The translations under genes were made by a program, and so were the position numbers. Below, piece by piece: positions 985 through 5,867 of a stretch of 38,812 nucleotides of DNA. The notes beneath the pieces were generated by a model. That model was given only the letters and a program-made list of their open reading frames with translations, searched no databases and was not told where the DNA came from. Source of the stretch: Promethearchaeota archaeon (GTDB lineage: Archaea > Asgardarchaeota > Lokiarchaeia > Sigyniarchaeales > SOKP01); assembly GCA_048939015.1 (NCBI GenBank), contig JBHLPW010000029.1, positions 21,233 to 60,044 of the forward strand, written 5' to 3'. Positions within the stretch are counted from its first letter, which is position 1. Every line of letters begins with the position of its first letter.

Positions 985-2514
985 TTGATAAAAAGTAAAA
1001 TCATTCAAATGAAAGAAGAGAGCACTTCCCAAATCAATGACTATAATAATAGTAAGCTAAATTTAATCCGGTTAGATTTAAAGGGTTATATTTATGAACA
1101 GGATAAAATTCGAAGGAATTATGGTAACAAGCTTATCTATACTAAGTTATTAAAGTACTCGAAAAAGATTATTGAAGATTATGTAATAAAAAATAGTTTG
1201 ATAACCAATAGCGATACAAAAAAAAGAAATGAGAATCAATTAATTTTCGAAAAAGATGGAACTCTCCGAAAAGCAGAATATCTTATAAAAGGAGATGGTA
1301 ATTTCGATAAAATCTTGAATTCAAGAAAAAAATATGGATATGAGGCTATTGTGTACAAATTAAAATCAAAATTAACCCCTTGGAAAAATAAAGTGTATTT
1401 TGGTTTTTCTAAGCATAATGTCAGGAAAAGAATGTATAAGCATATAATGGCTACAATTGGGCCTCATGGTTATTGCCCTGAATGTGAATATGTTAATTAT
1501 GTAAAACTACATGAGGCAATACTCAATGCGCTGAACTTTGAAAAAATAAATATCCGGTTTGAATATAGATGGCTGAAATCTAAAATGGGAACCCTAGAGT
1601 ACAAAGAAAGAATGGATTTCCTATTACGAATTTTAAAAAGATATTTTGAGATTGAAACAGTCGAGCTCCATAGAAAAAAGGAAACCGCAAAAAGGAATGA
1701 AAAATGGCATACAAAAAATTATGTCAATGATGACGGAACAGTAGGTACAGTTGAAAACGGATTAAATGAAATATGTGGAGGAAGTGATGGCCAGTATATT
1801 CAGCTTCCATTAATAGATATTGCCGCAATGCTTTCCATTGGCATAAAACCAAAAAGAATTCATCGATTAATAGTAAAACTCTATTCCATAGATGTTGCAT
1901 ATGAGACTGTTTCAGAACGTATCCGTGATATCTGGGAGGGTTATTCAGACGCTCTTGAATTATTTTTAAAACCTGTGGTAGAAGCTTTAATAATGGATGA
2001 TAGTGATTTCCAATTCAATGAAATATGTACTGCAATTAATAGAGATAGAAGCAATGCCAGGATGTACCTTAAATATTGGTATAATGGTCGTACTTTCTTA
2101 ATTTTAAAAACATTGAAGAAAAAAGGTGTGTTAGATTGGTCTAACTTGCCATTCTATAATGAGGAAGAACGACCGGAACTAAGAGGGATCTCTCTGAAAA
2201 CTTGGAAGAAATGGTCAATCGAAGGTGTAACTTGTAAAAAAATTGGAGAAAAATTAGGTTTAAATGAAGAAACAATACGGCAGACATATAAAGATATTCC
2301 AGAATTAGGATCCCCTCAGAAATGTAGAGATACTCTCCGAAAAAAAATTATTCGAAAACTTCTAGCAGAGAATTGGGATCCAAAAAAGATTATGGAAGAT
2401 AAATTTAAAATGACTCCTAGAGATAATTATTGCATTAAAATCTTCTATGAGAGACTGTTTCACGGCTTAAAGTTTGAGGAAATTGTTGTTAAAGGGAAAA
2501 AATACCAATTGTAA
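985..2514 (+). CDS. GIY-YIG endonuclease with C-terminal HTH-like repeats
   Basis: AIVYKL...KVYFGFS...RKRMYKH (GIY/YIG/Arg helix), later RNEKWH (catalytic Glu) and GLNEICGG (Asn motif). C-terminal HTH-like segments such as GVTCKKIGEKLGLNEETIRQ. True start may be the ATG at 1009. Confidence 0.7.
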   Translation: MIKSKIIQMKEESTSQINDYNNSKLNLIRLDLKGYIYEQDKIRRNYGNKLIYTKLLKYSKKIIEDYVIKNSLITNSDTKKRNENQLIFEKDGTLRKAEYLIKGDGNFDKILNSRKKYGYEAIVYKLKSKLTPWKNKVYFGFSKHNVRKRMYKHIMATIGPHGYCPECEYVNYVKLHEAILNALNFEKINIRFEYRWLKSKMGTLEYKERMDFLLRILKRYFEIETVELHRKKETAKRNEKWHTKNYVNDDGTVGTVENGLNEICGGSDGQYIQLPLIDIAAMLSIGIKPKRIHRLIVKLYSIDVAYETVSERIRDIWEGYSDALELFLKPVVEALIMDDSDFQFNEICTAINRDRSNARMYLKYWYNGRTFLILKTLKKKGVLDWSNLPFYNEEERPELRGISLKTWKKWSIEGVTCKKIGEKLGLNEETIRQTYKDIPELGSPQKCRDTLRKKIIRKLLAENWDPKKIMEDKFKMTPRDNYCIKIFYERLFHGLKFEEIVVKGKKYQL

Positions 2515-2531
2515 AACATTTAAATTAATTC

Positions 2532-2548
2532 TGATTTTTACCTACCTA
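2532..2548 (+). repeat. Dispersed direct repeat TGATTTTTACCTACCTA, copy 1
   Basis: Identical (17/17) to 5177-5193. Confidence 0.85.
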
Positions 2549-2642
2549 AGCCCAATGGGATTCGATGATGATGGGCACATGAAAAATTTATAACTATTCC
2601 CTAAAGGCAATTCTAGATAAAATAGAAAGTATTGATAAAAGA

Positions 2643-2659
2643 TTATTTTTGCCTACCTA
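2643..2659 (+). repeat. Dispersed direct repeat, copy 2 (TTATTTTTGCCTACCTA)
   Basis: 15/17 match to copy 1; supplies the TAG stop of the minus-strand 759-aa ORF. Confidence 0.7.
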
Positions 2660-4936
2660 TGTGGCAAGTGTGGGGATTTGGGGTCGAATTTCTGAATCAA
2701 TTTTTTTATATTCTGTTTTATCTTTTAGAAATTCATATCCAAATAAATTTGTTATAGAAATATCCCAATTATTAATATCTTTTATATTTCTAACCACATT
2801 TGCTTTTCGAGTGTAAAATCGTTTTAAACAAGGAAAGAAAAAGTATACTTGAGCATTATGATAATTGTGTTTTTTTGAATAATTAACAAAGGTATTAACA
2901 AAAATAAACACAACACCAGATTCATGTATTTTAATATTCGAATCAGCATGATATTTCCCCCATTGATGGGCTTCATAAAGGGTTAATGTATTTGTGTTTT
3001 TATCATATGAAGGTTTGAATGTGGAGGGGTATACTTTTCTAAAATCCTCCAGATTTTTTTCTTCATATTCAATATTTAGGTTTTTAATTAATAAAAGCTC
3101 TGAAGTGCTTGATAAATAATGATTAATTGCGGTTTTTAGTATATTACAATCATGATAATATTTTTCTAAACGTGTTTTGAATTCATTGAATTCTGAATAA
3201 AATTCTTGCATGATATTAGGGTTATCTTGTTTAATTTCATCGCAAAGAGCCTTCATTTTTTGTAAAACATCCGCCAAATTTTTTGTATTTCCTGTCCGGT
3301 TGTAGTAATAATAATGTCTTCTTTGATACCGAATGTCTCTGTCATTAATAAAATAGATCTCTTTCCAATAGGTAGTATGGTAGATAGATATCACAATTTT
3401 TTTATAAATTCCAAAATCAAGGTCAAAAAGAGGTAATGCAGGAAGAATTAATTTAGCATCACGAATGAGAGAGCGTTCAAGAATATTAAATTCTACAATT
3501 GTATTTTGATTTAATTTATCTATTTTATCAATCAAATCTTCGAATGCACTATAACTAGAGAACTCATATATTGTATAATAAGATTTATTCTGAATTACCT
3601 TGAAGTGGTTTTCAAGTAAAATTTTATGAGCTCTTTCGAAATTAATGAATTTATCATCTATTTTAAGAAATCTCCTATTAGCGTACCAAATTCGAGACCA
3701 ATCAATAAACTTTAGTAGATTATCTGCTTGTTCACAGTTCTTATTCATCAATGCTTCAATTACAGGTAAACGTATTTTTTTCTTATAATTAGTAATAATT
3801 CTATCAATGATTTTATATCCTCTCTCAAAAAAATGATTTATAAGAAGAACAGCTGCTTGAGTTTTATAAACAAAATAACCACCTGATAGTGTGACCTTTA
3901 GAAAATTAAAGGACTCTTCACTTGAAGTAATAAAGACTGGTAAATGTTTTAAGCAAGAAAATGACTCCCTATTTGAGGGCTCTAAAATCAAATTTATTGT
4001 GGATTTGTCTAAAATTTCTTCAATTTGAGATTGATCTAATCCTTTTAGAAAGCGCTTTTTAATGATATATATTATATCATTAATTCTCTTTTCTTTAACA
4101 CTTTCCATTATCTTATCTTTAATAATTTTAGGGGCTTGAGTATTGCCCATTTGAGTTAAATAGCGCAATAGAGGAAAGCAATCTTGAATTCTTTGATTTA
4201 TTGTTTGTGTAATATCAATATTATTAAAAAGTTCTGATAATTCTTCAGAAGAGAAATAGTTAAAAAATCTTCTGTAATAATAAAATCTTCTCCTACGCAC
4301 AAGAAGGTAAATATCTTTAGCGATACCCTTATCAAATCTATATTTGATTTGATTCCTTATTAAAGCTTTACTGCTAGAATATCCAAGTTTCTCAATTTGT
4401 TGGAGAATTTGGAAAACTAGATCAATTTTTTGGTCTTTAAATGATCCCATGTCAAGGTCTTCCATCAAAGTGTTAATTTCTTCCTTATTCAATGATTTCA
4501 AGTATCCTTGATTTAGAAGATAAAGCATCACTGTAATATGACCGCTTGAAAATCTAGATGCTATCTCATCTTTATACACCCGTTTCGCTTTAATATCTCC
4601 TACTTCAGATAGCTTTCTTAATAAAGGGAATGCGATATTTCTATGGAGTATGCATGTGTTATAATCATTTTCTGCCCATGCTTGGATGTTAGAACAGTGT
4701 GCGACAAATTCAGTCTCTGCAGATATTTGATTGTAACTATTGCCATGCCACCTATGACTTAGAGTTTCAGCAGCTTCATCAATAGAATTAATCTCATTAT
4801 ATTGCTCGACTTTAGAAACCGGTATATTCAAAAGTAAGTACATACACTGATTAAACCGTTCTCCATTTACATAAATATTAGTTCGACCATTTTCTAGTCG
4901 TAATGATAGAAATTCATTAATAGTATAAGTAAGCAT
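2657..4936 (-). CDS. Lokiarchaeota-type expanded-family protein with three internal helical repeats
   Basis: N-terminal INEFLSLRLENGRTNIYVNG...SIDEAAE...EFVAHCSNIQAW...LHRNIAFPLL matches a domain I recall from Loki (often LRR-linked) proteins. Repeats begin FPLLRKL / FQILQQI / FPLLRYL. Confidence 0.7.
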   Translation of the reverse strand: MLTYTINEFLSLRLENGRTNIYVNGERFNQCMYLLLNIPVSKVEQYNEINSIDEAAETLSHRWHGNSYNQISAETEFVAHCSNIQAWAENDYNTCILHRNIAFPLLRKLSEVGDIKAKRVYKDEIASRFSSGHITVMLYLLNQGYLKSLNKEEINTLMEDLDMGSFKDQKIDLVFQILQQIEKLGYSSSKALIRNQIKYRFDKGIAKDIYLLVRRRRFYYYRRFFNYFSSEELSELFNNIDITQTINQRIQDCFPLLRYLTQMGNTQAPKIIKDKIMESVKEKRINDIIYIIKKRFLKGLDQSQIEEILDKSTINLILEPSNRESFSCLKHLPVFITSSEESFNFLKVTLSGGYFVYKTQAAVLLINHFFERGYKIIDRIITNYKKKIRLPVIEALMNKNCEQADNLLKFIDWSRIWYANRRFLKIDDKFINFERAHKILLENHFKVIQNKSYYTIYEFSSYSAFEDLIDKIDKLNQNTIVEFNILERSLIRDAKLILPALPLFDLDFGIYKKIVISIYHTTYWKEIYFINDRDIRYQRRHYYYYNRTGNTKNLADVLQKMKALCDEIKQDNPNIMQEFYSEFNEFKTRLEKYYHDCNILKTAINHYLSSTSELLLIKNLNIEYEEKNLEDFRKVYPSTFKPSYDKNTNTLTLYEAHQWGKYHADSNIKIHESGVVFIFVNTFVNYSKKHNYHNAQVYFFFPCLKRFYTRKANVVRNIKDINNWDISITNLFGYEFLKDKTEYKKIDSEIRPQIPTLAT

Positions 4937-5033
4937 TCCTGGAAAATGAAAATTTTTTTGTTCTTAATTGGGTGTATAATCTAATTCTAGGTTAATTTAT
5001 AAAAACTAACAGCAAGATAATTTTTCAAAAAGA

Positions 5034-5050
5034 TGATTTTTACCTACCCA
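5034..5050 (+). repeat. Dispersed direct repeat, copy 3 (TGATTTTTACCTACCCA)
   Basis: 16/17 match to copy 1; shares upstream AAAAGAT with copy 2. Confidence 0.85.
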
Positions 5051-5176
5051 TTAACTTCTATGGTCCTATGTCCCACTTTGATTTAGTTTTAGATAAAACA
5101 ATAAAATCAACTCTCAAAATGATGTTTTAAATTTTGTCAATATCTTTTTGATTAAGATTTAATCATTAGATTTGCA

Positions 5177-5193
5177 TGATTTTTACCTACCTA
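5177..5193 (+). repeat. Dispersed direct repeat, copy 4
   Basis: Identical to copy 1. Confidence 0.85.
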
Positions 5194-5318
5194 GCGCACA
5201 TTGGCCCCCCAAAGTTGCATGTTAGAAAAAAATTTTTTCTTTATATATAAAAGATCCTATTTTATTCTTACAATTAATAATTATTCTATCTTCAGTAATT
5301 TGAAAATCATTCAACACA

Positions 5319-5867
5319 ATGAGCAAAGTATTAGAAAGTATAACTCAAAAAGTAAATTACTATAGTAGACCTAGGACAATCTCAATTAATTCTTTTAAGA
5401 TTCTATTTTATCTAACTAAGAGAAAAGGTACAGCATATTTTAGTGAAATCAAATCATTTTTGAATCGAAGTAGTAGCCAAGTTTCTCAAATTATGAGAAG
5501 ATTAAGACTCAAAAAATATGTTATAATAAAAAGTAATCGTCCATTGAAATATGCAATAACAGAATTGGGAAGAAAAGTAAATAAACGAACTATTAATGAT
5601 TTCTTGAGGTATAAAGATGAAAACTGTAATGATAGTAAAAGCCTTAAAATCCTAGACTCTTCAGTCTCTCGCAAGAATACTGAATTTCAAGATGAATGGT
5701 TAAAATATGAGGAATTAGAGGAATATTATAAGAGTATCCTTATCAGGTTTTTCATGGAATTACCCGAGATATTAGTAGATTTGGATATTGATTTCACACC
5801 CGATAAATATTCTAAATTTGTTGAAGAAACCAAAGCGTGCCTTTTTAAATATAACTTTTTACCTTGA
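5319..5867 (+). CDS. MarR-like winged-helix transcription regulator
   Basis: ILFYL...AYFSEIKSFLNRSSSQVSQIMRRLRLKKYV...YAITELGR wHTH signature. Confidence 0.75.
   Translation: MSKVLESITQKVNYYSRPRTISINSFKILFYLTKRKGTAYFSEIKSFLNRSSSQVSQIMRRLRLKKYVIIKSNRPLKYAITELGRKVNKRTINDFLRYKDENCNDSKSLKILDSSVSRKNTEFQDEWLKYEELEEYYKSILIRFFMELPEILVDLDIDFTPDKYSKFVEETKACLFKYNFLP

Follow-up and report, generated by a model that had tools for sequence, protein, structure and literature searches.

Ectopic CRISPR repeats and the locus under study

Repeats of the kind that make up CRISPR arrays also occur outside of arrays, and such ectopic repeats have recently been recognised in CreTA addiction modules, in Cas-regulating RNAs, and as RNA anti-CRISPRs. 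Those that have been studied come nearly all from haloarchaea, bacteria, and the viruses of these hosts, and we know of none described in Asgard archaea. Here we analyse a 38,812-nucleotide stretch (the window) of a Loki-type Asgard genome (Promethearchaeota archaeon, assembly GCA_048939015.1, contig JBHLPW010000029.1, positions 21,233 to 60,044; G000:C116:21233-60044 in our numbering), in which four co-oriented copies of a 17-bp repeat, each followed by a GC-rich tail, bracket a gene for a 759-aa protein. We refer to the 17-bp repeat as the box, and to the box together with its tail as a unit. The genome (G000) has 4.86 Mb at ~30% GC, and its assembly is 94.9% complete. We conclude that the boxes are probably ectopic, degenerate derivatives of a CRISPR repeat, of which they retain the 5' half, and our confidence in this repeat-derived origin is fairly high. 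The fuller proposal, in which these degenerate derivatives also serve as decoy or regulatory RNAs, stands in our judgement at an even balance, and we have little confidence in any particular function that they might have today.

Degeneration is typical of ectopic repeats. The CreA RNA of CreTA contains two degenerate repeat copies, psi-R1 and psi-R2, and psi-R2 has lost the eight 3'-terminal nucleotides that bind Cas5 while the rest is moderately conserved (PMC9458426). The units described here resemble CreTA in being repeat-derived sequences outside of arrays, strongly degenerate and often paired, and their pattern of conservation resembles that of psi-R2, where the 3'-terminal 8 nt, which is the 5'-handle part, is lost. 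They also differ from it. CreTA is located within a cas operon or next to one, and the toxin promoter is matched by its spacer-like part, whereas we found no cas genes in G000 and no target match for the tails in that genome or in IMG/VR; and the variable part of CreA precedes the conserved box, whereas here a GC-rich variable part follows it, in five copies. Solitary repeat units can also be RNA anti-CRISPRs (Racrs), which bind Cas6 and so titrate Cas proteins, and like the present units these are single repeat-like elements in intergenic accessory or mobile regions away from cas genes (PMC10651486). A Racr, however, mimics the whole repeat in sequence and structure and matches the CRISPR subtype of its host, whereas the units carry the 5' half only, share no fold, and correspond to an array in another genus.

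Copies of the box in G000

The 17-mer is present at window positions 2532, 2643, 5034, and 5177, always on the + strand and with 0, 2, 1, and 0 mismatches, in agreement with an earlier sequence-only reading of the window that had reported the same positions and orientation at 15-17 of 17 identities. Four matches were reached in none of 100 dinucleotide-preserving shuffles of the window. The start-to-start spacings are 111, 2391, and 143 bp, the first and last being the two pair spacings that the earlier reading gave correctly, and its hand counts of tail GC (about 50, 50, 38, and 55%) are matched by values of 0.50, 0.50, 0.38, and 0.56 over 32 nt. A fifth co-oriented copy (c5) lies outside of the window, ~1.9 kb before its start (G000:C116:19320; window -1912); it is solitary, and has two substitutions in the box and a tail with 56% GC. 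When the genome was scanned with a position weight matrix (PWM) built from all known units, the five copies scored 20.4-28.1 bits and the next-best site 18.8 bits, with an AT-rich tail, so that there are five copies only, each with its tail, and zero further units in the 4.86 Mb. This gap between the five copies and the rest of the genome indicates that the element is real and local, and not a genome-wide motif. Box-like matches elsewhere in 41 related genomes are without GC-rich tails, save those adjoining the 759-aa gene family.

The box of the second copy (c2) overlaps the 759-aa gene, its last three bases being the complement of the TAG stop codon (open reading frame [ORF] 2657-4936, - strand), as had been proposed from the sequence. 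An ORF of 55 codons (window 2649-2816, +), with a TTG start within c2, is antisense to the 3' end of the 759-aa gene and probably spurious.

The box corresponds to the 5' half of a CRISPR repeat

The link to CRISPR emerged from a scan of 400 Asgard genomes for two boxes spaced 130-160 bp apart, which returned G000, a second genome of the genus (G017), one stray site, and eight overlapping matches in a genome of a sister genus (G090). The matches in G090 (G090:C29, L062) constitute a genuine CRISPR array with cas1, cas2, a leader of ~470 nt, and ten 30-nt repeats (e.g. L062:1560-1589) of the archaeal type ending in ATTGAAAC, with a period of 66-67 bp. Its spacers are 35-37 nt long, and seven of the ten have 43-63% GC in an AT-rich genome, like the tails. 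The box equals nucleotides 1-16 of the 30-nt repeat save for one inserted base, the shared stretch starting at repeat nucleotide 1 and including a run of five T that is also present in every repeat of the G090 array. Conversely, the first 16 nt of the G090 repeat, when searched against G000 with at most one edit, gave three matches, all of them in units (c1, c2, c4), compared with a mean of 0.9 matches for ten shuffled 16-mers in the same 9.7 Mb. From this background rate we estimate that a chance match of the box to any CRISPR repeat would be expected ~0.003 times, on the assumption, itself a guess, of about a thousand distinct repeats in the 400 genomes.

The tail thus follows the 5' half of a repeat, which places it inside the repeat and not at the position of a spacer. 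In comparison with the canonical array of G090:C29, the units share repeat positions 1-16, the co-orientation of the copies, and variable segments that are GC-rich and of spacer size, but they have neither the 66-67-bp period nor a full-length repeat, and no leader or cas genes were found with them; only a 15-17-nt box is shared among the copies, and in the units the variable segment interrupts the repeat and is vertically inherited.

The leader-proximal repeat of the G090 array (L062:1494-1525) differs from the others by an additional C in the box region, and the array reaches the end of its contig. Three cas1-cas2 modules are present in G090, together with type III RAMP genes, and there was no match to a DevR-type Cas7.

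Units in other genomes are conserved in the box and drift in the tail

Relatives of the C-terminal 560 residues of the 759-aa protein are few. Among 53 further genomes of the genus, full-length orthologues were found in G017 alone, and there are short remnants of the gene in three more (G011, G020, G021) and a handful of metagenome proteins. The orthologues carry Promethearchaeota labels, and the window also encodes TFIIB-like proteins and GTPases of the Roc/Arf/Ras type. A box with a GC-rich tail flanks the orthologues in two other assemblies, G017 and the metagenome contig L049, and the gene remnant in a third, G011. Together with a distant pair in G017, this gives fourteen units in all: c1-c5 in G000; a, b, c, d, y1, and y2 in G017; p and q in L049; and x in G011 (Table 1).

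The CCTACC core of the box is identical in all ten units that lie beside an intact 759-aa gene or its winged-helix neighbour, though their tails have diverged, and substitutions in the core occur in the solitary c5 and in the G011 copies, where the gene is dead. The box is thus near-invariant in a setting where the neighbouring proteins are only 59-70% identical and the adjacent sequence has diverged, and this requires selection. The tails behave differently. Of 66 tail pairs, 11 are related at p<0.05, several of them at p<=0.005: the c4 tail matches that of G017 d (p 0.0025), which in turn matches L049 p (p 0.005) and, more weakly, q; the c2 tail matches that of G011 x (p 0.005) and more weakly that of G017 b (p 0.06); and b can be aligned with G011 x, and c5 with G017 c. 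For c3 the flanks are ~81% identical to those in G017, and within the tail the end is conserved but the initial 21 nt are not. The tails had been described as mutually unrelated, which holds within G000 but fails between genomes, where those at matching positions are related. Since they can be aligned at matching positions, the tails are inherited and drifting, and are not newly acquired spacers. Judged from these alignments, the box is evidently kept by purifying selection and the tail drifts, the rest of the repeat having apparently decayed into A/T-rich sequence.

Table 1. Positions and settings of the units and of the neighbouring genes. Plain numbers are window positions.
Feature	Location	Strand	Description
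Unit c1	2532..2581	+	Box 2532-2548, GC-rich tail of ~33 nt, then A/T run; 17 nt past the stop of the co-oriented 509-aa ORF
Unit c2	2643..2711	+	Box 2643-2659, G-rich tail of ~27 nt, then seven T at 2705-2711
Unit c3	5034..5076	+	Box 5034-5050, tail of ~26 nt; 98 nt upstream of the 759-aa start, pointing away
Unit c4	5177..5230	+	Box 5177-5193, C-rich tail of ~30 nt, then A7T6; directly upstream of the TATA-like box, itself conserved, of the winged-helix gene
Units a, b	G017		Past the 3' end of the 759-aa orthologue (59% aa identity), 154 bp apart
Unit c	G017		100 nt upstream of the 759-aa orthologue, pointing away
Unit d	G017		245 nt upstream of the winged-helix orthologue, which is there 8.3 kb from the 759-aa orthologue
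Units y1, y2	L099:1430-1559 (G017:C69, ~103,050-103,180)	-	80 kb from the 759-aa gene, just past a metallo-beta-lactamase-fold gene
Unit x	G011		About the last 40-60 codons of the 759-aa gene left; adjoining unit x with core substitution, and a second, decayed unit 146 bp off
Units p, q	L049 (metagenome contig)		Upstream of the 759-aa orthologue (70% identity), pointing towards it, opposite to G000 and G017
759-aa accessory gene	2657..4936	-	Bracketed by units; N-terminal domain of ~160 aa, helical repeats, C-terminal domain of ~300 aa
182-aa winged-helix protein	5319..5867	+	Candidate DNA binder
509-aa ORF	985..2514	+	Upstream of and co-oriented with the c1/c2 pair; outside of the conserved module

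A split repeat in G017

The y1 copy of G017 (L099:1543, - strand) consists of the box, 33 nt at 70% GC, and a 10-mer identical at 9 positions to the final 10 nt of the G090 repeat, and alignment of the whole G090 repeat to y1 gives p ~0.02 against shuffled tails. The y1 tail is related to that of G017 unit a (p 0.026) and, at its end, aligns weakly with the end of the c1 tail (p 0.08); y1 and y2 are 113 bp apart, near the 111 bp between c1 and c2. The tail relatedness and the spacing together place y1 and y2 in the same family of elements as the units around the 759-aa gene.

It is conceivable, though doubtful, that the units represent an undescribed class of split repeats, in which a solitary repeat is interrupted mid-way by a spacer-sized foreign segment (5' half, ~30 nt, 3' end). 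Such repeats would have arisen by aberrant Cas1-Cas2 integration and then been domesticated, the 5' half serving as a Cas6-binding sponge or as a handle on RNAs in Asgard accessory and defence islands, even after loss of the CRISPR-Cas system itself. That the split goes back to aberrant integration of a spacer into a solitary repeat is speculation. A further instance of ATTGAAAC is present ~60 nt upstream of y1/y2, within the end of the metallo-beta-lactamase-fold gene.

Proposed role of the units and the observations that weigh against it

On the simplest reading, the units would be transcribed on the + strand, or would have been in the past, giving either short RNAs or 3'-extended transcripts of the genes upstream, and these RNAs would present half of an unstructured archaeal repeat of the kind that Cas6-type nucleases bind. 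TATA-like matches are uninformative in flanks as AT-rich as these. The RNAs could then be decoys for, or regulators of, a CRISPR-Cas system. Solitary repeat-like RNAs that bind Cas6 offer a precedent, and the Cas6 enzymes that process unstructured archaeal repeats bind them in a wrap-around mode (PMC5965381). The partner system may have escaped assembly, the genome being 95% complete, or the island may encounter it only when passed on horizontally; it may also have been lost, and in this last case the box might survive as a reused site, for example one that binds a protein encoded at the locus. In Pyrococcus furiosus, Cas6 reportedly grips the 5' part of the repeat, which is the part retained here. 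If the units are transcribed and bound by Cas6, repeat mimicry would extend to Asgard archaea and to a new architecture.

Several observations weigh against both the CRISPR origin and this role. Profiles of Cas1, Cas2, RAMP, DevR, and Cas6_C gave no match in G000 or G011, although the Cas6_C model also missed G090 and is thus insensitive here, and an unassembled cas locus is possible in G000. A k-mer array finder run on the whole of G000 detected no CRISPR array, nor was one detected in G011. G017 does have CRISPR-Cas, with a different, 37-nt repeat in the array next to its cas1. The G090-type repeat was found in just 1 of 135 genomes of the family. The five-T run of the box could terminate archaeal transcription. 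The 3' half of the repeat is statistically undetectable in the units around the 759-aa gene, and the split-repeat arrangement is without an established mechanism.

Alternative explanations

A possible but unlikely alternative is that the box is a DNA operator for the winged-helix protein or the 759-aa protein and controls both genes, the CRISPR likeness being irrelevant or historical. The two genes are divergent, with c4 just upstream of the TATA-like box of the one and c3 upstream of the promoter of the other, and in G017 the regulator orthologue again has a unit (d) upstream, though far from the 759-aa orthologue. The units point towards the gene in L049 and away from it in G000 and G017, an orientation independence that fits a protein-binding site, and the box decays where the gene is dead (G011). 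Yet an orthologue of the regulator in G023 (58% identity) has no box within 1.5 kb upstream, the 13-kb L049 contig encodes no regulator, and seven of the fourteen units (c1, c2, c5, a, b, y1, y2) are in gene-end regions where no promoter is expected, y1 and y2 being 80 kb from both genes. The box is not a dyad, and this reading leaves unexplained both the GC-rich tails and why a CRISPR repeat is matched at its two ends. Should the box nevertheless bind a protein encoded at the locus, it would represent a CRISPR repeat reused as a regulatory DNA box.

The units are restricted to few accessory loci in a single genus. They are intergenic within an accessory island, some single and most in pairs spaced by 111-154 bp, and all those of a locus have the same orientation. 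Nine of the fourteen are 17-420 nt downstream of a co-oriented gene, and these genes are mutually unrelated, some with defence-type domains: the 509-aa ORF for c1/c2, a helicase gene for c5, a Schlafen/AlbA_2 gene for a/b, the metallo-beta-lactamase-fold gene for y1/y2, and a 336-aa ORF for p/q. This setting would suit 3'-end or terminator-insulator modules made from repeat-derived DNA, in which the T5, the GC-rich segment, and a second A/T run (T10 after q, T7 after c2, A7T6 after c4) stop read-through. We consider this improbable, as general terminators would be found genome-wide, whereas the box is confined to these loci; an invariant CCTACC core is not explained by termination; no co-oriented gene precedes c3, c4, c, or d; and the hairpin signal is no more than base composition gives.

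It is quite improbable that the units are what is left, without function, of an old CRISPR array interrupted by inserted genes, with the tails as leftover spacers. The copies are co-oriented within a locus as they would be in an array, the tails have a spacer-like GC content, and no cas genes were found in G000, but the contrast between box and surroundings described above requires selection, a repeat-spacer period of 66-67 bp is incompatible with spacings of 111-154 bp, and the tail is inside the repeat and not after it.

Very unlikely, too, are directional recombination sites like the attC sites of integrons, or ends of a mobile element carrying the 759-aa gene. As with attC, these are short directional elements on the 3' side of several unrelated, exchangeable genes; the gene content between units differs, and the 759-aa gene is oppositely oriented to the units in L049. 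In G017, 8.2 kb with about nine ORFs lies between units c and d (L035:1060-9350, G017:C69), the equivalents of which in G000 are 143 bp apart. The breakpoints of this difference, however, are ~80-100 nt past c and ~60-70 nt ahead of d, between the units and not at the box. The neighbouring ORFs that were scanned showed no domain of an integrase or transposase, the units have neither a conserved imperfect palindrome nor an attC-like folded structure, and no recombinase fold is recognisable in the 759-aa protein. Of the integron-like cassettes suggested by the sequence-only reading, only a weak echo is left, in that units often follow co-oriented genes.

It is barely credible that the 759-aa protein is a new RNA-guided effector and that the units supply it with active guide RNAs in which the box would be the handle and the tail the guide: box and tail flank the gene in three assemblies, and a tail of 25-33 nt is guide-like, but the tails drift as ordinary inherited sequence, no target for them was found in the genome or by exact 25-mer matching in IMG/VR, y1/y2 adjoins an unrelated gene, and the protein is composed of helical repeats and an alpha/beta domain with weak RWD/UBC-like matches (Z <7) and no nuclease motif. 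The repeat-plus-spacer architecture proposed earlier is supported in its first half, the match of the box to the 5' end of a CRISPR repeat, and not in its second, the tail being inside the repeat, inherited, and without a target in the searches made, with no cas genes or array found in G000 and no fold of a nuclease or Cas protein seen in the 759-aa protein.

Matches, folds, and coding potential of the units

The sequence-only reading had proposed to compare the tails with viral and host sequences. The tails have no matches in the genome beyond chance, nor any as exact 25-mers in IMG/VR. The segments between units likewise have only chance-level genome matches, and the y1-y2 segment has no second site in G017. 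Several classes of RNA were considered and rejected. Folds of 80-90-nt units had z-scores of -0.6 to +1.2 in eight of nine units, with no consistent fold, and duplex energies between box and tail were no better than with shuffled tails (sum p 0.62). Rfam gave no gathering-score match in the window, and only chance-level matches at E up to 10 over the 7.5-kb locus. No consistent boxes of C/D-box small RNAs, tRNA halves, or tRNA-type promoters were seen by eye, no tRNA is present in the window (ARAGORN), and the regions upstream of tRNA genes differ from the units. Micro-ORFs starting in the box were also discarded, as a start codon is at a shared position in 4 of 12 units and the indels in the tails are not multiples of three.

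Neighbouring genes

In G000 the units have as neighbours the 509-aa ORF, the 759-aa gene, the winged-helix gene, and NYN and helicase genes. The sequence-only reading had labelled the 509-aa ORF a GIY-YIG nuclease from motifs read by eye, and had associated the repeats with it. This label was not reproduced with Pfam, NCBIfam, or PADLOC, which gave only weak helix-turn-helix matches (sigma-70 region 4-like), and the supposed association does not extend to the other assemblies, where the 509-aa gene is not conserved beside the locus.

The best matches of the winged-helix protein, all sub-threshold, are the winged helix-turn-helix domains of Csa3/CasR-type regulators and of MntR. Its gene has a box upstream in G000 (c4) and in G017 (d), and the G023 orthologue, with no 17-bp box in the 1.5 kb upstream, has a TATA-like promoter box that can be aligned to its G000 and G017 counterparts.

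Pfam, NCBIfam, and PADLOC gave no family for the 759-aa protein, and its gene was not found on viral contigs. The full-length structural model is poor, with a predicted local distance difference test score (pLDDT) of 53, and the model of the C-terminal domain has a pLDDT of 77. The latter gave no Foldseek match, and VIA returned weak RWD/UBC/UEV-like matches with Z <=6.9, below the level of trust. With no family match, no nuclease motif, and no recognisable recombinase fold, the protein was rejected as a nuclease, Cas protein, or recombinase.

The N-terminal domain (window 4450-4936, -; residues 1-160) has no Pfam match and belongs to a huge family of paralogues, with 8 copies in G000 and up to 21 per genome of the genus, each joined to a different C-terminal part; the flanks of the seven other G000 genes that share it have no common motif. 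The C-terminal domain (window 2660-3736, -; 359 residues) is also found as stand-alone proteins of 350-430 aa in other lineages, one of them labelled Hodarchaeota.

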